Assembly (NCBI GenBank): GCA_016932855.1 | Contig: JAFGCB010000023.1 | Coordinates: 4,825 to 68,824, forward strand | Reading direction: 5' to 3' | Source of the DNA: Candidatus Omnitrophota bacterium | Lineage (GTDB): Bacteria > Omnitrophota > Gorgyraeia > Duberdicusellales > Duberdicusellaceae | DNA: 64,000 nucleotides | In this document: piece after piece, positions 1,819-23,000 of the stretch | Layout of the letters: every line of letters starts with the position of its first letter | How positions within the stretch are numbered: the first letter of the stretch is position 1 | Notes under the pieces: generated by a model | Databases searched by the model: none | The model's input: only the letters and a program-made list of their open reading frames with translations | Told to the model about the DNA's origin: nothing | Made by a program: the position numbers and the translations under genes

Positions 1819-3474
1819 CTACTTAACAACAAGAGGGACTCTTTGGGTATAGATTTCTCTGCCCAGGAAAAAGATAGATAAATCAAGAGCGTAATCACCG
1901 GATCTCTCGAAGGAACGAGAAAATTGCCTTTCCTGCACCTCAGCTATCATCATATTGTCTTTTTCTATCCTCCAAGAAAAGCCTAAAAGAGCCTCCGGTA
2001 AGCTAGGTTCTATAACAGCCTCAAAAGTAATGTTTTTATCCTTATCATCCTTAAAAGATATATCCAAGCCATAAATATTGATAAGTGCGGCGTCAGCACC
2101 CAGTATGCCCTTGGGTATTCTTTCCGCCAGACTCAATACTTTAAAACCTTCTTTTTTAAAAGAGGTGAAAAAAGCAGGCACATTTGTGGTTATCTTTACC
2201 TCGCCTAAGTCTCCTGACCATAAAAAAAGCCCTTCCGGAGCTAAACAGCCTGTTTCCGGTAAGAAAGAAGTGCTTTTAATCTCTATTTTTTCTCCTATAA
2301 AAGCCTTAAAAGGCCTGGCTTCCACCTGCAAAACCCCGTCTGCGCAGGTCTCTTCTTGAGACAAAAAATCCCAAAATGCTCTCTGGCTGTAATCAAACTC
2401 GCTTAAGGCCTGATCTTTATTAATAATCTCAAGCTGTTCAGCTGCATGGGTATTTCTTTTGGCTACCTTATTGAAATAAATCTTGGCTTTATCGAAATCT
2501 TTAAGTTTATACATATATATGAATCCCGAACGCAAGGCCACCTCGTCAAAAAGTAAAGACCCAGGATAAGCCTTAAGAAATTCTTCATAAATTTTTAAGG
2601 CCCTCTCATACTCAAAAGCCCTCTCAAGATTATAGCCTCTAATGTATAACAAATCCTCATTTAGAGAAAAGTCGAAATCCTTATCCAGCTTGTCAAAGAG
2701 CTCTTCTGCGAAATAGGGAGCGCACTGCTGATTAAATCCGTCACAGGATGTCCTGCCGATAAGGTTTAGAATATTTCTCTTGAGTTGGTTCTTATCTTCG
2801 ATTAAAGAAAGACAAGCTTTAGATAAAACTACGAAATTATCCAAATCTTCATTAAGATAAAAACTTTCGGCCTCTGATTTTAGAAAATATTCCGAGCCGG
2901 AACTTTTAAGAATCTTTATGTACAAAGAGGACAGCTTGCGCTTTATGTCTCTTTTCGGCTCGGCGCTTAACTCTGAAATTGCTGTTTTAAGAAAGGAAAG
3001 GGTCTTAGGGGTAGCTGACTTTATAGCGCTTACCTGGCTTAAGAAGCTTTCAAAAATATCTTTTTTCGATTTCTTTCCCAAGAATTCTTTTAGCCTGAAA
3101 AGAAGGTATTCCGCCTTAAGCCTTAAATGCTGAGGCTCTTTTATCTGGGCGGCTAATCTCTCTACTTCCTCTTCATAGGAATCCCGGAAAGTAAAGAAAT
3201 TCTCCCAGTCTTTCTCGTCCTGCCACTTCTTAAGCTTCGAAAATAACTCCTCGGCCCTCTCGATGTTTTTCTCGGAAGATGCCTCTAGCTTATCTAGCTC
3301 TTGGGCCCTAAGAGGCGCAAAAAACACCGTCCCTAAAAGCAACAAAAAGCCTAAGCTTAATGCCTTAAAGAAAAATCCTGAATTGTTTTTATGTTTTACG
3401 GCTTTTGACTTTTGGCTTTTGACTTTTGACTTGACTGGCTTATTCATCTTCCAAGAATTTCTGGGGGCTGGCAA
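1819..3474 (-). CDS. Hypothetical membrane-anchored/secreted protein with Lys-rich N-terminus (alternative start at Met10, coordinate 3447)
   Basis: KSKVKSQKSKAVKHK n-region, then a hydrophobic helix FFFKALSLGFLLLLGTVFFAPLRAQE and a roughly 480-aa helical/coiled-coil-rich body. No enzyme motif recognised. Overlaps the upstream GH gene by 8-35 nt depending on the start used. Confidence 0.5.
   Translation of the reverse strand: MPAPRNSWKMNKPVKSKVKSQKSKAVKHKNNSGFFFKALSLGFLLLLGTVFFAPLRAQELDKLEASSEKNIERAEELFSKLKKWQDEKDWENFFTFRDSYEEEVERLAAQIKEPQHLRLKAEYLLFRLKEFLGKKSKKDIFESFLSQVSAIKSATPKTLSFLKTAISELSAEPKRDIKRKLSSLYIKILKSSGSEYFLKSEAESFYLNEDLDNFVVLSKACLSLIEDKNQLKRNILNLIGRTSCDGFNQQCAPYFAEELFDKLDKDFDFSLNEDLLYIRGYNLERAFEYERALKIYEEFLKAYPGSLLFDEVALRSGFIYMYKLKDFDKAKIYFNKVAKRNTHAAEQLEIINKDQALSEFDYSQRAFWDFLSQEETCADGVLQVEARPFKAFIGEKIEIKSTSFLPETGCLAPEGLFLWSGDLGEVKITTNVPAFFTSFKKEGFKVLSLAERIPKGILGADAALINIYGLDISFKDDKDKNITFEAVIEPSLPEALLGFSWRIEKDNMMIAEVQERQFSRSFERSGDYALDLSIFFLGREIYTQRVPLVVK
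3401..3428. repeat. Heptanucleotide tandem repeat (GCTTTTG/ACTTTTG)x4 in the 5' coding region of the 1819..3474 gene
   Basis: gcttttg acttttg gcttttg acttttg read directly. Encodes the KSKVKSQKSK n-region. Unit length is not a multiple of 3. Confidence 0.9.
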
Positions 3475-4666
3475 AGAAATCCCTCAAAACATAGTAGGCT
3501 TTACGGGGTTTTTTAAGGAAAGTTCCTTCTTCGTCTTTGCTGAAAGCTGTTATTCCGAACCATTCTTCGTTCATATTTAAATTCCTGGACACTTTTATGT
3601 CAAAATAATAAGAGCCGTTTGACCACCCGCCCAGGGTATCGTGATATACCCATCGGCAGCTGTCCGAAGGGTTATATTTCCACCATTCATCGTTCCATTC
3701 AAAAATAATCCCTCCCAGGCAGTTACCTTCGGGGATCCTCTCGAAAGTATTCTTGTAGATGTCTAACCACTGAAAAAGCAAGAATTCAGCCTGGATATCC
3801 TGGTCTTCCTTGTTGCGATAGGCATCATAAGCATCGCAGCCCATCTCGGCGATAAGAACAGGTTTATCAAAAATGCTCTTTACTGAGTTAAAAATATTCC
3901 CGAATCTTTTTCCTCTATAAAAAATCAAAGCCAGCAAATCCACGTCTTTGGCATATTTTGCGGCGATATCCAAAGTAATCAGCTCCCCGTTTCCTAAGGC
4001 TACGGGATGGCCTTGGTCTATTTCTTTTATACCTTTACTGATATCATTCATTAAGCTGTAATAAATCTCCGCCTTCTTGCATATCTTCTGGGAAGGATCC
4101 TCTATGGCATCAGCTTGGGGACAAGGCCAGGGATTTACCTTGCCTGAAAAAGAATAGTTGTTTTCATTGCCAAGAATCCACATCAAAAGCCCTTCCTCGT
4201 CTTTTAAGGCTTCTACCATCTCCAAAACTTCTTTTTTAACCTCTTCTCTGAACTTCTCGTCGCCGTAAAAAGGGCAAGGATAATTCCAGAAACCTACCCA
4301 ATGACCCATTACAGTGTAAATGCCGTTCTTATAAAACTGTCTGATTACTTTCTTGGTCTTCTCTAAATCCGGACTGGGAACATAAAGCCGCACTACGTTA
4401 AAGCCCGCTTCCTTTAGCAACTTGGCGTCTTTATCTATCGCATCTAAATCCTGCCAAAAGTCGTAATTATAGTCGCTTCCCGGCGGGACAGGGTGATAGA
4501 CAACTCCTTTTACCAGAAAAGGCTGGCCGTCTACAATAAGCTTGTAGCCTTTTTCCGGGGTGCTTTTAATCTCTACTTTAACAGCCCGGGCGTCATTGCA
4601 AAATGCAAAATGCAAAATGCAAAATGCAAAGGCTGCAAGAAATAGTAATTTTCTCATAGCTATCAC
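3440..4666 (-). CDS. Secreted glycoside hydrolase, clan GH-A (beta/alpha)8 barrel (GH5/GH2-like); probable true start ATG 4657..4655
   Basis: Signal peptide MRKLLFLAAFAFCILHFAFCNDARA. LMWILGNENNY fits the GH-A acid/base NE(P) motif. VLIAEMGCDAY is a nucleophile-strand candidate. Aromatic-rich GGIIFEWNDEWWK. Paralogous to the C-terminal half of 6034..8355. Confidence 0.7.
   Translation of the reverse strand: MIAMRKLLFLAAFAFCILHFAFCNDARAVKVEIKSTPEKGYKLIVDGQPFLVKGVVYHPVPPGSDYNYDFWQDLDAIDKDAKLLKEAGFNVVRLYVPSPDLEKTKKVIRQFYKNGIYTVMGHWVGFWNYPCPFYGDEKFREEVKKEVLEMVEALKDEEGLLMWILGNENNYSFSGKVNPWPCPQADAIEDPSQKICKKAEIYYSLMNDISKGIKEIDQGHPVALGNGELITLDIAAKYAKDVDLLALIFYRGKRFGNIFNSVKSIFDKPVLIAEMGCDAYDAYRNKEDQDIQAEFLLFQWLDIYKNTFERIPEGNCLGGIIFEWNDEWWKYNPSDSCRWVYHDTLGGWSNGSYYFDIKVSRNLNMNEEWFGITAFSKDEEGTFLKKPRKAYYVLRDFFASPQKFLEDE
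4597..4631. repeat. Heptanucleotide tandem repeat (TGCAAAA)x4 plus one imperfect unit in the signal-peptide coding region of the GH gene
   Basis: tgcaaaa x4 then tgcaaag. Encodes AFAFCILHFAFC. Confidence 0.9.
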
Positions 4667-4712
4667 TTGCTATACTAAAGCGGATATTTAAGGCTGTCCA
4701 CCGCCTTAATTC

Positions 4713-4747
4713 TATACGCTACCCGCTATCCGCTATACGCTAAACAC
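4713..4747. repeat. Degenerate heptanucleotide tandem repeat (TAYMCGC)x5 in the intergenic/promoter region upstream of the GH gene
   Basis: tatacgc tacccgc tatccgc tatacgc taaacac, 56-92 nt upstream of the ATG at 4657. The last unit overlaps the stop codon of the 4747..5892 gene. Confidence 0.8.
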
Positions 4748-5892
4748 TACTGCCCTTCGTACTTTATCTCATCCAGATAAAAGGTTGCTCCTTCGGGATT
4801 AACATCGGCATTGGTAGTCCAGCAAAAACCTCCGATAACATAGGATAAATCCTTGCCTCTTAAATCAATGGTGTATTGCTTCCAGTCTTTAGTCAAAACA
4901 ACCGGGCCGATTCCCGCTGAGTCGGAATCGGAATATTCACCCATGATTCCGCCCATCTTGAACTCTTCAATTCTTTCACCGCCGTTTTCACCCTTAGCCC
5001 AGAAAGTAAGCTTGGTTGCGCCTGATAAATCAAAGCCGCCGTCTCTAGAACCCCAGTTATTTACCGGGTTCTGCCAATAAATACCTGACCAACGGGCACC
5101 CTGAGTTCCTTCAGCGGTATAGACAACTTTCATACAGGAAGAACCTGAATAGGCGCTGCCTTTGTAATTTACATTTATCCTTACGTCTCCGAAATCACCC
5201 ATGTAACCGGAAGGAATATAGTGGTTATCTAAAGAGCTTCCGTCGGCGTAGACATAGAAAGGAAACCCGATTTTCATGGATTCCGGCTCAAGAGTAGGAT
5301 CAAAGAGGTAATAGATATCGTCTAAGTAAACAGTTGCCCCTCCGACAGTCTGGTCAGCTGAAAACATCACGCAGAAGCCGCCGCTTATGTAAGATAAATC
5401 CAATCCGGCTAAATTCACCGAGTATTCCTGCCAGGTGGATGTAAGCTGAATCGGGCCTGCCTCTTTTTCTCCTGAATCAGGAAAAGCAACCTCTGTCCCT
5501 AGGCCCATGCCTCCAACTTTTACTTTGTTTATTACTTCTGTGCCGTTCTGGCCTCTGGCCTTAAAAACCAGCTTGTTAAAACCGGTTAAATCGAATCCGC
5601 CTTTGCGGTTACCCCAGTTGTTAGGCGGAGACTGCCAGTAAATGCCTGCCCACGCCCGGCCTTGAGTTCTCTTTCCGGAATAAACTATTTTTATACAAGT
5701 AGCTCCTGAAGCGGGTTCCTCCATATTCTGGTCATCCAGGCTTAAATCTCCCACATCTCCCATCCAGCCGCTCGGCGCGTAATGATTGGAAGGAGAATTT
5801 CCGTCGGTGTAAACGTCGAACTTCTTATCTTCCTGAGCATAACCTAAAGAAACAATCCCTGAGATTAACAAGAGAATCAAAATTCGCTTCAT
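4747..5892 (-). CDS. Secreted protein with two tandem ~170-aa beta-sandwich repeats (carbohydrate-binding-module-like)
   Basis: Signal peptide MKRILILLLISGIVSLGYAQ. Two internal repeats: YTDGNSPSNHYAPSGWMGD..GIYWQSPPNNWG..GGFDLTGFNKLVF..ATVYLDDIYY and YADGSSLDNHYIPSGYMGD..GIYWQNPVNNWG..GGFDLSGATKLTF..ATFYLDEIKY. Sits between the two GH genes. Confidence 0.6.
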   Translation of the reverse strand: MKRILILLLISGIVSLGYAQEDKKFDVYTDGNSPSNHYAPSGWMGDVGDLSLDDQNMEEPASGATCIKIVYSGKRTQGRAWAGIYWQSPPNNWGNRKGGFDLTGFNKLVFKARGQNGTEVINKVKVGGMGLGTEVAFPDSGEKEAGPIQLTSTWQEYSVNLAGLDLSYISGGFCVMFSADQTVGGATVYLDDIYYLFDPTLEPESMKIGFPFYVYADGSSLDNHYIPSGYMGDFGDVRINVNYKGSAYSGSSCMKVVYTAEGTQGARWSGIYWQNPVNNWGSRDGGFDLSGATKLTFWAKGENGGERIEEFKMGGIMGEYSDSDSAGIGPVVLTKDWKQYTIDLRGKDLSYVIGGFCWTTNADVNPEGATFYLDEIKYEGQ

Positions 5893-6033
5893 ACTCTGCC
5901 TCCTTTCGTGTTTTTAACATCTGGCTTAAGCTCCTAATCTTTGGATTATTTTGCTCACCCCCTTACCTATATAATATATAAACGCCTCCCAAATTGATAA
6001 TTTTAAATTGCTAATTTTACATTTTAACTTTTA

Positions 6034-8355
6034 TTATCTATTCCAAAGAGCTTTATAGGCAAAATAAGCCTTTTTAAGCTGGCGCAAGAAGGGAGAGTTT
6101 CTTCCGTCTCCTTGACCGACTAAGCCTAACCATTCCTCATGCATGTGTCCGTCTAAGAAAGGTCCGGTAAATAACCCTTCCTTATCATGGTATCCGGGCT
6201 CGTAAGCCTTCCACCACTCATCAAGCCACTCAAAGACTACCCCGCCCAGGGCCGAGCCGGCTCCTGAACCGGCAAGGTTGTTTTCAATATCTTGCCAGCA
6301 GCCCCGGTGATACTCCTCCTGAAAACCTTCGGCCTCCTCAAGAGTGTAACCTTTAGCGATGCTGGCAGCCCCATATTCAGTTACCAAACAAGGCTTGCCT
6401 GTATAATCTCTTACGTCCTGCCAGAAAGAGCCAAATCCGTATTTTCCTCTGTAAATATTAGCTCCGAATATATCTACATTGCCGCTGTGCTCGGCGAATA
6501 AATCTAAATAGAGCGTATCGCCTGAACAGATACCCACCGGCCGGCGGCCCGAATCTTTTTCTTTTACGAACTGCGCGGCCTTATCTACAAACTTAAAAAA
6601 ACTTGCCGGGTCTTTATCGGCATTACAAGCAACTCCGTAAACGTTCTCATTGCCTAAGAGCCACATAAGAATATAGGGTTCATCCTTAAACTCCTTAAGC
6701 ATCTCTTCTATGTTCTTTAGCATATTAGCCTGGTGTTCAGGATTGGAGTAATCCGTGCCTTTCTCCCATGAGGCGCCGCTTCCGAAGGCGTATTTTCCCA
6801 AAAAATTCCCCATTATGGTCATTATCCCGTAATCCTGGTAGAGCTTTCTTAGAATTTTTTTATCGGGCGTATTGGGCTGGTAATAGACTCTTATGCAATT
6901 TACACCCATTTCCTTAAGAAGCTTAAAATCGCCGACCGTTTTCTCGTCGGGGTCTTTTTCATTATCACGGTTTTTATCGACCCAGGCTTCGAACGGCGCG
7001 TCGATTATATTGTTATCATTGGTGTCCTGAAGCGTCCAGTTAGCCATGGTCTGTTCATCCGGGGACTCACCCACCCGGGTAGGAAAATAAGTTATGGCTT
7101 TAATGATAAAAGGCTTGCCTTCAACCAGCAGCCTCCAGTCTGAATTCTTGTACTTAACAAGCTTTACCTTATCGCCTTTTTCTTCTACGACCGGGCCTAA
7201 GAAATATTTCCTTTTAAGGCCGCGCAGGCTGTCAAAGATACTTTTCCTTACGAACTTCCCCGGGTCCACTATAAAAACATCGTTTCTTATATCGGAATCA
7301 AACCCGTTTTCTATCTTAATACTGGCCCCCTCAAGCCTAAGCCCCAGTTCAGTATGCCTTCTTAAAAGATACTCAATCCTGCTTAAGGCGGCCGGGGCCA
7401 CATACCAGGGAGTCGACCAGTAAGTCCAGGCATAGGTTTTAGGAAAATGCACCACCACCGCATAATAAGCTTTTATCGCCTGGGTGATAAGACCGCTTCT
7501 TTCCAATAGATCACCGAGATAAAACTGCTTTACTCCCCAGGGCTCACCGCAGATATTCCATTTATAAAAAGCAAGGCTTAAATCCCGGCTGTTTAGGACC
7601 TGCCAGTGATCAACCTTAAAAAGCTTCTTCTTAAGCTTTATGAACTCCGGGTCATACCTAAAAGATGTGGTATTGGGATATACCCCTTCCCCGCAGGCCA
7701 TGGATAAACCTTCCTGGTCTCTTATTTCGTATTTGTAATCTTTAGTCCCTGCTCCTTTAAATTCCCCGTATTTCTCATAATCAACCGGGAATTGGCCCTT
7801 TCCGTCAGATAAAACAATGTCGGTTATGACCATTTCTTCTTCTTCTTTCTCTTTAATTTCGCCGGTAGTAAGTTTGCTTAAAGTAGCTTCTGCCTTCTCT
7901 TTAATGGACCAAAACCAACCCCGGGGATCCCAGGCTAGAGCATAAGGATATTTATCGATTAAAGTCTTAAATAATTCTTTAGCCTCGGAGATTTTTACCT
8001 CTCTCATAAGAGCCTCGCCCTTAATAAAATAACAAGTGGCCACGTCATTCATTGCCTTGCATGCATCAGCGCTTTCTTTGGAAGGCAAGCTGCTTAACCC
8101 CGAGGCTATACTGTCAGCTTCAGCCTCAAACTTAAGCATACATTCATCGGTGATTTGATAAACTGCGCTAAAATTCTTCTTGCCCAGCTCATCCCAGCCC
8201 CTCTTTACATAATCCGATGAATCCTGGCCAAAACAGACTAAAGACCAAACCTTGCCTGCCGGCAGGCAGGGACTAAAGACCAAAAAGAAAACAAAGACAG
8301 CCAGTCCTATATTTACCTTTGATTTTATTAACATTTTCGCTTTGAACTTAAGCAT
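6034..8355 (-). CDS. Glycoside hydrolase, clan GH-A paralog with ~380-aa N-terminal extension
   Basis: N-terminal hydrophobic anchor/signal. C-terminal half aligns by eye with 3440..4666: NCIRVYYQPNTPD vs NVVRLYVPSPD, YILMWLLGNENVY vs LMWILGNENNY, LVTEYGAAS vs LIAEMGCDA, GGVVFEWLDEWWK vs GGIIFEWNDEWWK. Confidence 0.7.
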   Translation of the reverse strand: MLKFKAKMLIKSKVNIGLAVFVFFLVFSPCLPAGKVWSLVCFGQDSSDYVKRGWDELGKKNFSAVYQITDECMLKFEAEADSIASGLSSLPSKESADACKAMNDVATCYFIKGEALMREVKISEAKELFKTLIDKYPYALAWDPRGWFWSIKEKAEATLSKLTTGEIKEKEEEEMVITDIVLSDGKGQFPVDYEKYGEFKGAGTKDYKYEIRDQEGLSMACGEGVYPNTTSFRYDPEFIKLKKKLFKVDHWQVLNSRDLSLAFYKWNICGEPWGVKQFYLGDLLERSGLITQAIKAYYAVVVHFPKTYAWTYWSTPWYVAPAALSRIEYLLRRHTELGLRLEGASIKIENGFDSDIRNDVFIVDPGKFVRKSIFDSLRGLKRKYFLGPVVEEKGDKVKLVKYKNSDWRLLVEGKPFIIKAITYFPTRVGESPDEQTMANWTLQDTNDNNIIDAPFEAWVDKNRDNEKDPDEKTVGDFKLLKEMGVNCIRVYYQPNTPDKKILRKLYQDYGIMTIMGNFLGKYAFGSGASWEKGTDYSNPEHQANMLKNIEEMLKEFKDEPYILMWLLGNENVYGVACNADKDPASFFKFVDKAAQFVKEKDSGRRPVGICSGDTLYLDLFAEHSGNVDIFGANIYRGKYGFGSFWQDVRDYTGKPCLVTEYGAASIAKGYTLEEAEGFQEEYHRGCWQDIENNLAGSGAGSALGGVVFEWLDEWWKAYEPGYHDKEGLFTGPFLDGHMHEEWLGLVGQGDGRNSPFLRQLKKAYFAYKALWNR

Positions 8356-8360
8356 AATTC

Positions 8361-8470
8361 CTATGATTTCTCTTCTCCTCTTCTTTCTTCTCCTCTTCTT
8401 TCTTCTCCGCGTCTTTCTATTGTTCTTCTTTCTTCTTTTCGTCTTTCTTCTCTTCGTCTTTCGACCTGCA
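8361..8470. repeat. About 110-nt polypyrimidine (CT-rich) tract with 15-nt periodicity, encoding the EERR-repeat tail of the MFS transporter
   Basis: ttctcctcttctttc repeated, with variants. The plus strand is almost pure C/T from 8361 to about 8470. Confidence 0.85.
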
Positions 8471-11865: not shown

Positions 11866-13175
11866 TTCCGCCTTTGGATCTCTTTTTCCTTTATCCTCTG
11901 GACCTCTTCGACCAGCTCTTGGGCAGTCTTTTCGCCGATGATTATACTCTGGACACCTTTAGTAAAGGCCTCGATGACTGCCGGGTATTCCTGGAAAGGC
12001 CACATATTAGGATGAGTAATACTGTCGGAATCATCGGCAAACTCGGACAACTCTTTAGGTATGCCTGATAAAGCTTGCCTGTTGGAAGGCAAATTCTTAG
12101 TCTTGTTTACTAAAAATACCTGCTGTTCTTTATCAGTAAGCCACTTAAGAAACTCTACCGCCTCTTTCGAAAGAAACGACCTGGCGTTTACGTAGAAAGA
12201 GCTGCCGGCTCCGCCCCAGATCTTCATTGGATATGCATCAGATGCTTCGGGAGGAAGAATAACTGAATAATCCAGCTTGGGATTCATCCCCTGGTAGACA
12301 TTAACGCACCAGCTTCCGTTAAAAGCAAAAGCGACTTTTTCATTGGCAAAAAGCTGTTCAGCGTATTTATTATCCATAGTGACCACGCCGCTGGCCAGCC
12401 CCCCGCTATCGCGCAACTCTTCAAAAAGCTTAAATACCCTAAGCCAGTCACTGTCAGTGTAGGGAGCTTCTGCCTTTATCGTCTTTATGACTTTATCTTC
12501 TCCCATAATATTAAAGGCGTAATTAGAAACCATGCAATCAATCATCCAGGTCTCGGCCCAGCCGGAAACAAGCCCCTTAATGCCTTTTTCCTTTAGGGTC
12601 TTTAAATCGGCAATGAACTCCTCCCAGGCCTGGGGAGGTCTTTGAATGCCGGCTTGCCTAAGAAGCTTATTATTGCAGACCATTTGAATATTCATCAAAT
12701 CTATAGGTATGGCATAAGTGCCCTCGGTTACGCCGAAAGCATTGTCCTTCTCAAAAGAAGTGACTGCCAGGGCACTGGTAAAAAACCGGCTTTTCCACTC
12801 AGCCTCATTCTCTTCCAAATATGGCGTAAGATCCACAACATGCCCGGCCTTGATAAAGGAAGCAACATCTATTTTTTCGCCTAAAACACCGAATATATCA
12901 GATAAAGTCTTGGCCTGGGCTGCGGCAAGTATCTTCTGGGAATAGGAATCAGGAGGGCTAAAAAGCTCAAAATTTACTTTTATCCCGGTTAAATCTTCAT
13001 ATTTTTTAGATAATTCTTCGAAAGCTTCCTGACGGTCAGTCATCCAGTGCCAGACAACTATCCGGTCCTTCTTTACAGCTTTATCTTTAGAAGCACAGCC
13101 CCCAAAAATAAGCGTAAATGCTATAAAAACGCCTAATAAAAGCCTCATTATTTCTACCCTCTTAATCTTAGACAA
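11862..13175 (-). CDS. ABC transporter extracellular solute-binding lipoprotein (carbohydrate family)
   Basis: Lipobox LIFGGCAS after the signal peptide. Size and composition fit carbohydrate ABC binding proteins. Reads as an operon with the two permeases. Confidence 0.8.
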   Translation of the reverse strand: MSKIKRVEIMRLLLGVFIAFTLIFGGCASKDKAVKKDRIVVWHWMTDRQEAFEELSKKYEDLTGIKVNFELFSPPDSYSQKILAAAQAKTLSDIFGVLGEKIDVASFIKAGHVVDLTPYLEENEAEWKSRFFTSALAVTSFEKDNAFGVTEGTYAIPIDLMNIQMVCNNKLLRQAGIQRPPQAWEEFIADLKTLKEKGIKGLVSGWAETWMIDCMVSNYAFNIMGEDKVIKTIKAEAPYTDSDWLRVFKLFEELRDSGGLASGVVTMDNKYAEQLFANEKVAFAFNGSWCVNVYQGMNPKLDYSVILPPEASDAYPMKIWGGAGSSFYVNARSFLSKEAVEFLKWLTDKEQQVFLVNKTKNLPSNRQALSGIPKELSEFADDSDSITHPNMWPFQEYPAVIEAFTKGVQSIIIGEKTAQELVEEVQRIKEKEIQRRN

Positions 13176-14086: not shown

Positions 14087-17000
14087 TTACTTCATCCCCG
14101 GCACCCTCAATTCATCTCCCGGCCGGATTAAAGCAAAAAGATATTCCCGGCCATTCCTGGTCCTCGTCTCTATTTCTATCCCGTTAGCCTCGGCAATATC
14201 TCCGAAAGTAACTCCCTCAAAACTCTGAGCAATATCCCACAGAGTATCGCCTTTATTGACTGAATATTCCCTTGTATCGTACTGCGTACCGGGTACTGCG
14301 TACCGCGTTGAATTTAATACTCCACATTCGTCACCCGGCGCCTCCCTTAAAACTGCCTCAGGGGACAACCGACTAGTGATACCCGGTACACGATCAGACG
14401 CCAACGGCGAAATGAATTCTTGTTCAGTCCCCGGCACCCGGTCCGTTGCATTCTTTACAAAACTGCTTGAATCAATTTTGTAAACTTTGGACAGGGGTGA
14501 GCTGGAAATAACATTTGCCCCGTCAGCCGGACTAAATAACTGCTTAAGTTCCCACGGCAGATCGCCAAGGATATCTTTAATTAAAGATTCATTTATCTTC
14601 AAGAATTCTTCAACTCTCGGCTTTTCTTCATTTCGAAATTTCAAATACGCTTTTGATGGAGGCCAGACTAACTGATATATATTCTCCTCTTCTAGAACAG
14701 CTAAGTAATGCGTTACTCCCAACCCACCCCATCGAGGTGAAAAACATAACTGCTCTAACTGCTTTGCTTTAAGTTGCGGATAGTCATCGCGCAATCGAAA
14801 GACATTTTTTACTTCCAGGAATTCATGTAATAATACATATAGCCAATCCGAAGGTGTAAAATAAAAGTGGTCTCTTAGATTAAAACGCATACCCACAATA
14901 TTAATTATAGTACCTTTGGAAGCATCTACGAATTTAACTTTACAAATGGCTGGACCGGCTGGTGTTTCTGATAATAAATCACTCGAACTTGTGCCTTCTT
15001 CTTCTATTCTCTTTTTCTCTTGACGAATACGCTCCCTGTAATCAAAACCGTTCTCCTTTAACCTATCTAAGGTTAAAATAATCAATTTATTTAGTATTTC
15101 TGCTGTTACTTTAATAATTATTTCTTTATCTTCAACAGCAATTGATTTTCTTGTCTGAATTTTTCTATATGCAGTAAAATAGCTGTCCCATTCTTTTTCA
15201 GAAAATTCTAATTTTTCCCAGAGGCCCAATTCTGTTAATTCCTTACGTACCACCGGCGAGCTCATGGTTCGACTACCGCTCAACACTAGCCCTGAGCTTG
15301 TCGAAGGACTTCCCCCTTTCTTTACAAATCTGCTTGAAACAGATTTGTAAACTTTAAGAGGGGAGCTGACCATATTAGAAATACGTATATAAATATCCAA
15401 AATCTTGGTAGGCACATTTTCTGTAAATCCCTTTTCTGAACTAAACAGAAAATAAGCTTGATGCAGACTGTGATCCCATAAATCTAACAACTCCAAAGTC
15501 TCCTCTTTTGCTTCACTAAAAATAACAAACCCGTATTGACTTTCAACAAGTTGTCCCGCTTTATTTTTATCTAAAAAATATTTTATGTCCGCTAAAGGAT
15601 AACCTAGAATAAACCCTTGTAATATATCGCGGTCAAACCCGGGTTGTTTATGCGAATTCAAGGCAGTAACTATAATATCTATTTTACTCTTTACCTCTTC
15701 AGATTGACGCACTCTAGCGGTAAGAAAGTCGAGTTGCCCCTTAGTAATAAGGTCGTTTTCTACCAAGAAAGAACCCTCGTATTTTAATCTCGAAATAATG
15801 TTAGGCCATAAGATAATCTCGTTATTGGTAAAAACTAACCCTAAATTCTCCTGAGCTTCCGGAATGTTGCTTATCTCGCAAGCTAACTGCACTATATCTA
15901 TATCAGGCTCATAAGTATATTTTATATATGCGGACTTCACGCCTAAAAAAACAGACAAAGCATCCGGATACAATAACTGCTGTTTAGCTTTGTCACTAAG
16001 CTTAGTGAAGGCTCTCTTAACAATTAACGACCTTTCCTGCAAGGCACTATGCGCCGGCGAGCTGATTGGTTTCTTCTCAACCGGATAAATAGAAGCGTCC
16101 CCTTTTTCACCATCTGTCATTATTTGTTCCCGTAAAGCCTGCGGGTTTAGTTTCCACCTCCTCAATTGAGCGTATAAGGACTCTTTAGATATACCCAATA
16201 TCCCGGCTGCCTGTGTAAAATTACCCTTTGCTTTAAAAATAGCCGCAAATAATCTCTGCTTTCGAAGCTCCTCTATCTTTATACCGTAATATCTTAATTT
16301 TCGATATACTTCGTTTTTGTGCCATCCCAATTCAGCAGCTACCCGGGGGATATCACACTCCATTCTGATTACAAGCTCTTTTAATTCATCTGCCTGGCTT
16401 TTTTTAGTCGGCCGGGAATTTTGAGCTTCTTCTTTTATTCCGTATTTATCTAACTTTCTATAAAAAGTCTCAATGGGCATTCCTAATATCCTTGCTGCCT
16501 TCCTAAAGTTATAATTTACATTAATAAGAGCTTTTTCAATCATCTGCCTTTCCCGTTCTTCAAGGGTATCCCATACTACAGGAACTTGCAGTTTTTGATT
16601 ATTATTTATAATTAAAATGTCTGGAATTCCGCCGGACCAGCTGTATATCTGGATCTTAAAGCTAAGTATGGTTTTTGTAACCGCGTACCAGCCTTTTGAA
16701 ATCTCTTTTATTCTACCGCTTGCGATAATTTCTAATGTCCTATCCTTACTCCTTTTATCGGCTATAAGAAAAGGTATGTTTAATAAAGCATGAAGGCACA
16801 GTCCGGAATAACATCTTATAGCTCCGGCCTCAACTGCTGCCCTTATAGCGGTACCCATACGCTGTCCGGAAAGCGCGTTCTCCCGAAAATAACCTCTCAT
16901 CTGCGGAATGGACTTATCCAACATATTCAATACCTCGGAACCCGATAGAACATCTTGGGAAGTTTTTAAAGGAAATTCTCTAAGGACCGCCTTTTTTAAC

Positions 17001-20000: not shown

Positions 20001-23000
20001 GAGCTCAACCCATCTTCCGACACCCCAAGCTCGATGCCCGTAACTGCCTCTTCTCCAATAGAATCTGAGCTTTGATTATTTCCTGGAAATTTCCTAAAAC
20101 CCCATAAGACCGCTGGTACATATAGAGCCACACCTAACAAAAATCCTTCTATGCTTGCATGCCATGGTAAATAAAATAAGTTATAGGAAATACCAATCGG
20201 CAATAATATCTTCGCCCAATTTCTTACTTTCGTCTTCTCTGCCGAGTTAGGTTTCTTATATGTCATATAAAGTGAATAGACCATAAAAGGAGGGCCTAAG
20301 GCTCCTACAAGAAGGTTTTGGGTAGTAAAACTTAAGGGAAGAGAGAATATTATGCTCAAACCTATACCATAATACGGCCAAGCTGTGATAATTGTTTTAC
20401 GCATGTTAGGAATCTTGTCTTTTAATATAGTTACAACCCCTCTGTTTTTATTTTCCGGTAAGCTTTTCTCAACTAAACTTTGCATAGAAAAAATAAGAAA
20501 AAGAGAGACTACTGCTGTAGTAATCTGATCAGCACCGCCAAGCAAAACGCAAGGCAAAGAACTTTTTAGCCATATATTATAAGTACAAGGCCAAAACCAA
20601 CCAAAGAAAAAGAAGGTTAATCCAATAGTAGCACCTAATCCCTTAAAATTAAACCTCTTTAGATTTAACAGCTGGCCGGAAATATCTGCTATGGCTCTAA
20701 AAGTAAGAAAACTAACAAAGGTCCTCAAATTAACAAACCCTATAAATCCTGGAATATTCACTGAAGCAAATAATTCACCTAATGGTATTTTAGGCACGTA
20801 CTGTAAAAGATAGAATGAAATACCTATAACTGCAGTTGTTATAGCAACTACGGGGATAGTTTTACGTAATCGCGTTAGCTGGTTAGAATTATAGTCAATT
20901 TTTTTAAGGGGCGAGCTGATGATTCTCTCGGTTTGCGGTTTGCGGTTTGCGGTTTGCGTAAAGGATTCATTTCCGGAAATTGGGCTTGAGGCATTTTTGT
21001 TTTTATCCCAAAACTTAGATTTTATTGGTGAAGAAGTTAATCCTTTTATGGATTTGGCAGGGCTTGATAAAGATATGCTTATTGGCGGAGCATTGCCAGA
21101 TAAACCTCTTTTAACAAACCAATTATTTAAAGGAGAGCTGATTATTCTTGTTTTATTTGATAGCTTTTTTCGGCTAAACACATAAGGAACTTCTACTACA
21201 TCACCCTCACTTAGCGTCTCATGGTTTAAATCATCACCATCTCTACCAATGGACGCATCTAAAGAATAACTTCTTAATATAGGAAACTTCTTTTTAATTG
21301 CATAGCTTTCTCTGGCTAAAGACGCCCAAGCACCTCTACGAAGAGCTTTTTCAAGCGGAACAGTAAAATCGTAATCCATTACTGCCTGATAAAATCCGAC
21401 TAATATAAAGGCTCTTCTATCTTCCGGTCTAAAACATCTATACCTATATGCACTCATCCAAACAAGTCTTTCTATAAGGCTTCTATGAATTCTACATAAA
21501 ACATCAAAAGCTCTGTGTTCGTTTTGCTTAATAAGTAAAATTAATTGGTGCGATTGCTTACTTAATATTCTATCAAAATTAAGAAAAGGATTTTCTAAGA
21601 TGGATGTATCTATTTTTCTACTGCGTAGAGAATTATTCAACTTCTCGATTCTAAGTTGCCTTGTCCTAGGAGAAGGAGATTTTTTCTTCAAAGAAACCCA
21701 ATCAGCATTATCTTCGAGATTAACAAACCATATACCTGAAAATTCACGAGTTCCTCCGCCGCCGCCACCAAAGAGAGTAACTTTTTGCCCTGCTAATTTC
21801 TTGTCGTGTAAATCGTAAACAATTGTATTAGGACTATGATTAAACTTACTTGCCACTTCAGATGTAGTTAAGTAACTAGGATTAGTATAGATTTCATACT
21901 GCCTGTGGATTTCTTTTACGATTTTAAGAAAATCATATATATCTATTCCCTTAAATCTAGACTCAGAAGAACTTAAGCTTAGTAACGTATCTTTTAAGAT
22001 ATTTCTTCGCTTGCCGAATTCTTGATTTAGTATTTCAGAAAGTATGTAACGTTTAGGGTTTTTCACCAATTTATAAAAAACTGCCTTATAAATATCGCAA
22101 ACACCATATTCATTTATAGCTTTCTTAGCTTGCGGCAAAGGGATAATCAAAGCCTGTTCTTTATTCAAACTATTCAAGGCATCTACTGATATGTACCATC
22201 TTCTGCCCGACTTCTTTACTCCCAATCTTTTCCTCATCGAACGTTTTCTGTTTAACATATTAGAAAAAACGCTTCTGTTAACTCCCAGCACCAAGGCAGC
22301 TCTAGAAAGAGTAACAAACCCAGAAGCATTATCATCCTTAACAACTTCTGGCTGTAGAGCGCCTATCCACTCTTGATCAATTGATAAATTTCTTATAACA
22401 GCCTCCAAAACATTAATTCTTTGCCCCTTAACCCTAACCCAAAAATTCTTGTTATACCTCTTATCTGGTATACTTCTTAATGGTGAACTAACTATAGATG
22501 CTTCATCGAATAACTCAGCGGCCGTATATCCTGCTTCAAAGATTATTTTTTTTCTAGTAGAGCTAATACGTTTTGCTAATATTTCTTCTGGCTGGGATAA
22601 AGATCCTTCTCCGTCAAGCTCATGAACTAACCATTTATCCATAAGCGCTTTTGTTTTGCTAGAAACTTCATTTTCAAATCTCTTTAGCACTCCTTCAAAA
22701 TAAAAACCATTTAAGTTATCTAGAATTCTAACACGCAAATCTCTATTCAAATCCTTTAGAAAATCTATAAGAGCAAACTCTAACCAAAGAGGCGCTCTCC
22801 TAGCTCTAGTTCTTAGAGTATTAATAACCATAGATACCCAATCAAAGGCAATCCAATCTTTACTACCAATAACCTTATGTATAAGCGCATTAAGCGCGAC
22901 AGTTTCTTTATCTTCTCTAAAATAAATTTTCTCTAATAACGACATAAGCTCTTCTTTCTTTTGCGATTTATTCCAGCTGGGATTAAACAACATAGACATA

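Follow-up and report, generated by a model that had tools for sequence, protein, structure and literature searches.

Heptanucleotide tandem arrays at the 5′ junctions of a sugar-utilisation gene cluster in an uncultured Omnitrophota bacterium

A 64-kb stretch of a metagenome-assembled genome (MAG) of Candidatus Omnitrophota, referred to below as the window (64,000 nucleotides of contig JAFGCB010000023.1), carries three short tandem arrays of a 7-nt unit in and around the gene for a secreted glycosidase. From the letters alone, these arrays had been proposed to form contingency loci, at which slipped-strand gain or loss of a unit would switch the glycosidase and its neighbour on and off. Here, the arrays are compared with a class of heptamer arrays present in 57 of 143 sampled Omnitrophota loci and concentrated at gene starts. 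The reading that we prefer, with about an even chance of being correct, is that the three arrays are slippage-born heptamer microsatellites kept in permissive 5′ junctions and not demonstrated contingency switches.

The arrays were located by direct reading and with Tandem Repeats Finder (TRF). Array 1 (3401–3435, minus strand) reads GCTTTTG ACTTTTG GCTTTTG ACTTTTG at 3401–3428, followed by a degenerate fifth unit, ACTTGAC, to 3435; on the coding strand this is (GTCAAAA/GCCAAAA)x4 plus the degenerate unit, and TRF reports 3402–3432 with period 7, 4.4 copies and 91% matches. It encodes KSKVKSQKSKAVK, in the Lys-rich n-region (VKSKVKSQKSKAVK) of an anchored TPR protein, before the hydrophobic anchor or signal segment, and its alternating G and A units suggest growth via 14-mer duplication. 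Array 2 (4597–4631, minus strand) consists of four TGCAAAA units at 4597–4624 and a TGCAAAG unit to 4631. On the coding strand it forms a perfect run of TTTTGCA of 34 nt (TRF 4597–4630, 4.9 copies, 100% matches) encoding FAFCILHFAFC, the hydrophobic core (h-region) of the glycosidase signal peptide, for which the residues make A-x-A cleavage after ARA likely. Array 3 (4713–4747) is noncoding and has the form (TAYMCGC)x4 plus a degenerate unit, reading TATACGC TACCCGC TATCCGC TATACGC at 4713–4740 and TAAACAC to 4747 (TRF 4712–4742, period 7, 4.4 copies, 83% matches). It lies 56–90 nt upstream of the glycosidase ATG, with one end abutting the stop codon (4749–4747) of a 381-aa gene and the other 56 nt before that ATG. 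At period 7, the window contains four perfect tandem runs with 2.5 or more copies, two of them exceeding 4 copies, and at periods 6 and 8–14 it contains none; when 1.8 Mb of related sequence was dinucleotide-shuffled, no period-7 TRF array arose. A chance origin of the three arrays is excluded, and the claim that they exist at these places is confirmed far beyond chance.

The placement of the arrays agrees only in part with the sequence-only reading, which put two in 5′ coding regions and the third in a promoter between the two genes. The two coding arrays are indeed so placed, but the glycosidase stop and the TPR ATG overlap by 8 nt (ATGAATAA); there is therefore no promoter between them, a single transcription and translation unit is predicted, and array 3 lies upstream of both genes. 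The single sigma-70-like match upstream of the glycosidase (4672–4700, minus strand; −35 TGGACA at 4700–4695, 17 nt, −10 TAGTAT at 4677–4672), a consensus match only, puts array 3 upstream of the −35 element and outside the spacer. The array would therefore be unable to alter the −35/−10 spacing, contrary to the effect on promoter spacing that had been expected of it. The frameshifts predicted for the coding arrays were reproduced in silico: gain or loss of one or two units truncates the glycosidase to 16–32 aa (array 2) and the TPR protein to 14–21 aa (array 1), whereas changes of three units keep the frame at both arrays, with seven residues gained or lost. Arrays 1 and 2 are non-triplet simple sequence repeats (SSRs) positioned to alter expression, as at contingency loci; array 3 strictly is not.

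To place the arrays in a class, TRF was run on 160 loci around glycosidase orthologues (L001–L160), a sample of one gene cluster's surroundings and not of whole genomes. In the period spectrum of 161 related sequences (1.94 Mb, duplicates included), 123 arrays have period 7, compared with 8 of period 6, 27 of period 8, 16 of period 9 and 48 of period 14, an excess of period 7 over the other long periods among the sampled loci. The non-redundant set comprises 116 period-7 arrays in 1.70 Mb, spread over the 57 of 143 Omnitrophota loci mentioned above; TRF found none in 129 kb of non-Omnitrophota loci. The median copy number is 4.6 (~32 nt; interquartile range 4.3–5.1, maximum 10.3), and with 4.4, 4.9 and 4.4 copies the window arrays are likewise not long pure tracts. 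Twenty-eight of the 116 (24%) are perfect, the median length is 32 nt for coding and 33 nt for noncoding arrays, and the units are diverse, with 82 canonical units among 117 arrays. The lengths of perfect period-7 runs are bimodally distributed: numbers decay over 14–20 nt, a gap follows, and a second mode, shared by coding and noncoding arrays, lies at 30–34 nt (4.3–4.9 copies); perfect runs of 3 copies or of more than 5 are scarce in the related loci. Such bimodality would not be expected from stepwise slippage alone; it might arise if arrays grow by doubling (7 to 14 to 28 nt) or if there is an optimal length.

The class is strongly biased in position. Array midpoints fall within −100 to +150 nt of an open reading frame (ORF) start in 81% of cases, versus 15% for random positions. 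Seventy-two of the 116 non-redundant arrays lie within ORFs, mainly in the first 160 nt and in N-terminal signal sequences; the remaining 44 are noncoding, and some arrays stand just upstream of the start codons of cytoplasmic enzymes, e.g., phosphoglycerate mutase and GH116. In the first 45 nt of ORFs the arrays are A/G-rich (charged n-regions) and from 45 to 160 nt T-rich, with 47% T (h-regions), a succession that matches the order from n-region to h-region. Arrays of the class are also found in the closed chromosome of V. archaeovorus LiM and are identical across JGI, ENA and Logan assemblies.

At orthologous gene starts, the arrays turn over. Occupancy of orthologous 5′ zones is 23/74 (31%) for a 773-aa gene of the same cluster, 14/72 (19%) for the TPR gene, 6/43 (14%) for the solute-binding protein (SBP) gene, 16/133 (12%) for the glycosidase, 9/110 (8%) for the 381-aa gene and 0/17 for the polytopic MFS transporter, and arrays at orthologous sites are nearly always of differing units. 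In the nearest glycosidase homologues (60–70% identity), the signal peptide is ordinary, similar in length and lacks array 2, which is therefore young. Just before the TPR start, the glycosidase C-tails are K/N/Q-rich in many species, often from differing A-rich heptamers. At this glycosidase/TPR junction, which is constrained in composition, three related loci (L127, L084 and L094) have the array ahead of the ATG, whereas in the window it follows the ATG; what the arrays track is therefore the junction and not a particular protein segment.

Length changes could be followed in related strains. Genome, metagenome, protein and exact-protein searches for a strain of the same species returned nothing beyond the source MAG and a single Logan run, and the nearest public relative has 69% identity in the glycosidase. 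Slippage was measured instead in close pairs among the related loci and in the V. archaeovorus clade. L155 and L156 (98.9% identity) differ by 21 nt in a coding n-region array, with the frame kept and a second array identical. Between L163 and L172 (97.9%), the arms of a noncoding hairpin have changed in length by 21 and 7 nt and the coding arrays by 0, and L021 and L090 (93.5%) differ by 14 nt in each arm. L009 and L090 (95.7%) carry two signal-peptide arrays equal in length with point substitutions, and L098 and L099, from different samples (100%), are identical. A single V. archaeovorus-like strain is represented by nine contigs, two from JGI samples, six from Logan runs and one from an ENA assembly, and all of their arrays are identical. 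Array length differences thus occur only between strains 1–6% apart and amount to 7, 14 or 21 nt, with coding arrays changing by 0 or 21. The comparison of related genomes for unit-number variation that had been recommended therefore bears out steps of 7 nt at this divergence, but the nine same-strain contigs show no variation.

No OFF alleles were detected. Of 44 noncoding arrays, none turns into an N-terminal extension when 7 or 14 nt are added or removed, and no out-of-frame glycosidase was found among ~150 orthologues, including 16 with arrays; ON and OFF alleles coexisting in nature were found neither among the 116 arrays nor among these orthologues. Protein lengths of 401–466 aa in 90% clusters were considered as possible ON/OFF alleles and rejected, as they reflect start-codon calling and variable C-tails over DNA that is in frame. 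In the V. archaeovorus clade (P0048 cluster L163–L173, L009), callers differ by 36 codons on the glycosidase start (411 vs 447 aa), and the shorter call of 411 aa omits the whole array-derived signal peptide though the DNA is in frame in all. Start-codon annotation near such arrays is unreliable. In the overall indel spectrum between close pairs, multiples of 7 are not dominant, and array slippage is therefore one of several indel processes. Slippage in the class is real but slow by contingency-locus standards, and the coding arrays show frame-preserving changes only.

According to the reading preferred here, the three arrays, which belong to an Omnitrophota-wide population of heptamer arrays of ~32 nt (4–5 units), would have been born by replication slippage. 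Such arrays would arise repeatedly at gene 5′ junctions and persist where composition but not exact order is constrained, i.e., in A-rich leaders and Lys-rich n-regions followed by T-rich signal-peptide hydrophobic cores, so that tolerance would account for their location. Those of the window would by now be ordinary gene parts: the TPR n-region, the glycosidase h-region and an intergenic spacer. Length steps of 7 nt occur occasionally in the class, with only frame-preserving changes (0 or 21 nt) surviving in coding arrays, and any switching in the window organism would be infrequent. The arrays would then be material from which N-termini and leaders slowly evolve, and not programmed, rapid and reversible ON/OFF switches.

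Several observations weigh against this interpretation. Passive slippage combined with tolerance does not explain why 7 nt is so sharply preferred to 6, 8 or 9, and passive slippage does not account for the bimodal perfect-run lengths or the median length shared by coding and noncoding arrays. Neighbouring arrays are, moreover, specifically reverse-complementary beyond what composition provides. An independent assembly breaks exactly at the perfect glycosidase array, which could reflect length heterogeneity. Finally, where frameshifting SSRs are strongly biased towards N-termini, this has been taken as a signature of selection for phase variation (Lin and Kussell; PMC3315296), and the N-terminal bias of the present class could be interpreted in the same way.

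The complementarity of neighbouring arrays speaks for a different explanation, which appears possible but doubtful: that the arrays are functional nucleic-acid elements at junctions, acting as stem-loops (REP-like stabilisers, processing sites or translational gates) or as A/G-rich standby sites or sites for RNA-binding proteins in a 7-nt register, with signal peptides merely tolerating them. For 17 pairs ≤120 nt apart, unit complementarity is 4.47/7, compared with 3.49 for cross-gene pairings (permutation p = 2e-4), and the RNA duplex energy of neighbouring arrays is −25.5 versus −12.2 kcal/mol (p = 1e-5). A partner ≤150 nt away that pairs better than all six cross-controls was found for 45% of arrays, against 14% expected (Wilcoxon p = 5e-9). 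In coding pairs, the purine-rich arm corresponds to a long charged n-region and the pyrimidine-rich arm to the h-region. In the V. archaeovorus clade, two complementary arrays form an intergenic hairpin between the stop of a TPR-like gene and the ATG of GH116 (L163 5390–5485; L172 5500–5562; L090 8989–9088; L021 ~13020–13100; L009 ~13050–13125). Its architecture is kept, running from stop through arm, T-rich loop, arm and ~10 nt to ATG, across an allelic series with arms differing by 7, 14 or 21 nt; both arms are changed by 14 nt between L021 and L090, and in LiM both have been swapped together for ACAGNNN/NNNCTGT. The common ~32-nt length of coding and noncoding arrays and their floating across the start codon at the glycosidase/TPR junction point in the same direction, with the TAACTGA repeats near start codons as a precedent (PMC4679880).

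The window itself offers little for such elements. None of its five arrays has a complementary partner better than controls, and an inverted-repeat partner for a REP-like stem-loop is thus lacking there, in contrast to ~45% of the arrays in related loci. Local folds around the window arrays are unremarkable (z = +0.93 and −2.0), and a hairpin role for these arrays was rejected on both grounds. A single complementary unit, TATCCGC, lies downstream of array 3, and the predicted RNA fold pairs the two. Arrays 1 and 2 are quasi-complementary (TTTTGCA vs CTTTTGA, the complement of TCAAAAG; 5/7 positions), at a distance of 1.17 kb on what is presumed to be one transcript; ~9% of random array pairs match equally well, and the complementarity is therefore probably coincidental. 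In the wider class, only 8–31% of orthologous sites are occupied and their units differ, as would not be expected of a conserved regulatory element; array geometry around the start codon is inconsistent; and an Rfam search of the window and four loci gave no match.

A related and more speculative proposal is that an Omnitrophota-specific process or selection keeps writing ~32-nt arrays, often as complementary pairs, onto gene 5′ junctions, whereby leader hairpins and signal peptides, the latter with a charged arm followed by a hydrophobic one, would be continually rebuilt out of new 7-nt units. The window arrays would then be fresh, unpaired products, and the glycosidase tract might still switch. 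If true, such lineage-specific writing would amount to a new cis-element or mutational engine, e.g., heptamer-biased slippage with hairpin-templated copying, or a factor working in a 7-nt register.

The original contingency proposal fares less well and is judged unlikely. It holds that 7-nt slippage reversibly frameshifts the glycosidase and the translationally coupled TPR protein, and that the upstream tract modulates transcription, giving heritable ON/OFF or graded expression of exported proteins. Formally it could hold, most of all at the perfect array 2: changes of one or two units truncate both proteins and changes of three restore the frame, the glycosidase tract is a perfect 34-nt run, the affected genes encode exported or surface proteins, and related strains show step-7 polymorphism. 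Analogous CTCTT repeats occur in the leader peptides of opa genes. Further analogues are the 7-bp promoter repeats of hmw1A/2A (PMC2651432, PMC8262952), and the overwhelmingly N-terminal position of the coding arrays of the class is a signature like that described in PMC3315296.

The assembly break has also been taken to favour switching. The Logan assembly of run SRR13394437 matches the window base for base on either side of the tracts and breaks inside array 2. The break fits heterogeneity or shared k-mers and proves neither, because the array 2 unit also occurs in other species, as in L023, where an unrelated lipoprotein carries it in its h-region. A copy-number cause was modelled in k=31 graphs with alleles of −3 to +5 copies, all single-base variants and foreign arrays; none gives the observed ends at 4602/4624. 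One-variant k-mer models of changed copy number thus fail, and the break is uninformative.

The remaining evidence runs against rapid switching. The window arrays have 4–5 copies, versus 13–38 in proven heptamer switches, and the majority of class arrays are degenerate. No OFF allele appeared in 116 arrays or ~150 orthologues, nine independent same-strain assemblies are identical, noncoding arms included, and genomes 4% apart hold array length while gaining substitutions. Units are not conserved at orthologous genes, the same class occurs in leaders of the cytoplasmic phosphoglycerate mutase and GH116 genes, and array 3 stands outside the promoter spacer. Of the contingency-locus architecture recognised from the letters, the frameshift geometry and the step-7 changes in the class therefore survive, but the low copy numbers, the missing OFF alleles and the absence of anything special about this trio do not support it. 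Chance similarity or an assembly artefact, which has in its favour only the general caution about repeat mis-resolution in MAG assemblies, is effectively refuted by the lack of period-7 arrays in shuffled sequence, by the independent Logan assembly that reproduces the window exactly on both sides of the tracts and by the same-class arrays in the closed LiM chromosome, identical in JGI, ENA and Logan assemblies.

The window derives from a 73-kb contig of the Omnitrophota MAG, and relatives of its glycosidase (NCBI protein JW734_02345) are nearly all from Omnitrophota. Between 1 and 14 kb, every gene lies on the minus strand, forming a sugar-utilisation cluster with an ABC sugar transporter, an MFS_2 transporter, a 773-aa TPR and GH2-type protein, a secreted 381-aa protein, a 405-aa clan-A-like glycosidase, a 542-aa TPR protein and a ROK regulator. 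The secreted 405-aa (beta/alpha)8 glycosidase gene (3440–4657, minus strand, ATG at 4657) shows weak GH72 and GH2_C TIM-barrel matches. It is followed by the gene for the 542-aa, N-terminally anchored or secreted TPR protein (1819–3447, minus strand, ATG at 3447) and preceded by that for the 381-aa secreted two-domain protein (4747–5892, minus strand), which has no Pfam match. In many relatives, the glycosidase start codon is an ATG within conserved last codons of the upstream gene (...FYLDEIKYE; ...CTGGATGAGATTAAGTACGAATAA, read as MRLSTNK...). At 4747–4790 of the window, that overlapping start frame terminates immediately (ATGAGATAA), and the glycosidase start is shifted 90 nt downstream. 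A peptide-like element upstream of many glycosidase orthologues (KAxICxILSAV...SIWMRLSTNK) was rejected as an out-of-frame reading of the upstream gene's conserved C-terminus. Between array 3 and the glycosidase start lies a small hairpin, TTAAGGC-N8-GCCTTAA (4688–4709, minus strand), with no T-tract after it.

Further repeats accompany the cluster. An AT-rich 7/14-nt array occupies the spacer between the 773-aa and 381-aa genes (5991–6033), and a purine-rich 15-nt/7-nt repeat (8371–8463, minus strand) encodes a C-terminal tail of the MFS transporter that is rich in R, E and K and lies immediately before the start of the 773-aa gene at 8355. The tail reads ERRREERRKEERR...GEERRGEERRGEEKS, and the independent Logan contig L161 also stops here. 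Heptamer-type repeats are thus present at five consecutive window junctions (8371–8463, 5991–6033, 4713–4747, 4597–4631 and 3401–3435). A giant ORF of 16,626 aa (14087–63967, minus strand) occupies most of the window; a Pfam scan of 10,000 of its residues found only an ARMT1-like phosphatase domain, HTH_8, HTH_17 and a C-terminal LysM. Giant genes of Omnitrophota are already known (bioRxiv 10.1101/2023.11.21.568195; 10.64898/2026.06.07.730766). Two minus-strand heptamer arrays lie inside this ORF, CGTACCG x4.4 at 14278–14308, atypically placed ~70 codons from the C-terminus, and a perfect CGGTTTG x4.3 at 20929–20958; a 7-nt slip at either would truncate the giant ORF.

Some units are shared among species. 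Four window units (3402, 4597, 4712, 20929) each recur as an array in another, distant species: CAAAAGT in L127 (7142, at the same glycosidase/TPR junction), CATTTTG in L023 (1216), and CTATACG and CGCAAAC in L093 (7214 and 2270). The unit families TTTTCTG/CAGAAAA, AAGACAG and CGTATA-like are found in many species. Unit sharing exceeds uniform expectation, in a figure that mixes composition bias and preferred units.

A literature search for heptamer repeats in Omnitrophota found no description. Over-represented heptameric SSRs and SSRs in signal-peptide coding regions are known already; the variant with diverse units, a preferred length of ~32 nt, concentration at 5′ junctions and signal peptides, and frequent complementary pairs appears to be new. 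If the arrays were true switches, they would represent phase variation of secreted glycosidases in an uncultured, ultra-small and probably host-dependent bacterium, a strategy so far documented mainly in host-adapted pathogens. Even without switching, they are a strongly non-random genome habit. The arrays therefore bear on the origin and turnover of signal peptides and leaders, on heptamers as a favoured long microsatellite in several phyla and on start-codon calling.

Proven heptanucleotide switches provide one comparison. The tracts of H. influenzae hmw1A/2A have 13–38 copies (PMC2651432), are perfect, differ between nearly all strains and include frameshifted alleles (PMC2651432, PMC8262952). 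The Omnitrophota arrays share with them the 7-nt unit, slipped-strand change and a position ~60–100 nt upstream of an exported-protein gene, as for array 3, or in ORFs. They differ in having 4–5 mostly degenerate copies that are stable within a strain, with no OFF alleles found, and array 3 does not lie between promoter elements.

Other heptamer repeats resemble the Omnitrophota arrays in distribution. According to PMC4692102, which quotes Mrazek 2007, heptameric SSRs are over-represented in many bacteria, and a polymerase-footprint rationale has been proposed for the 7-nt unit size. The cyanobacterial STRR sequences and the GGGNATC repeats of Xanthomonas (GGGAATC) and Nostoc (GGGGA(T/C)T) are intergenic and belong to one or few unit families (PMC4692102). 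The likeness lies in a lineage-wide period-7 excess, near-ORF or intergenic position, length variation among close relatives and occasional inverted pairs; by contrast, the Omnitrophota arrays use 82 units in 117 arrays, and 72 of 116 lie inside ORFs, which departs from the pattern of few units in intergenic positions. In Beggiatoaceae, cyanobacteria and Bacteroidetes, TAACTGA heptamers lie upstream of start codons, only a few nucleotides from them, and have been proposed as regulator binding sites (PMC4679880). Like these, the Omnitrophota arrays are heptamers in few copies (2–6 in the TAACTGA case) close to the starts of functionally unrelated genes. There, however, a single conserved unit suggests a sequence-specific binder, whereas the Omnitrophota units are diverse and often run into coding sequence, and TAACTGA is not among the units of the 117 arrays.

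The REP/BIME elements of enterobacteria are short imperfect palindromes at cistron junctions and are copies of a genome-specific consensus. The paired arrays of related loci are similar to them in place and size; each Omnitrophota hairpin, however, uses a heptamer unit of its own, and the window arrays are unpaired. In Neisseria opa genes, CTCTT repeats reportedly lie in the signal-peptide (leader) coding region, as found by Stern et al. in 1986. This pentamer is present in 7–28 copies, with the same unit in every opa gene and strain and with ON and OFF alleles in every genome, whereas the Omnitrophota arrays are of many units and are not conserved at orthologous genes. In both systems, however, a non-triplet repeat encodes the hydrophobic core of a signal peptide, and a change in unit number shifts the frame of the mature protein, making opa the closest architectural analogue of array 2.

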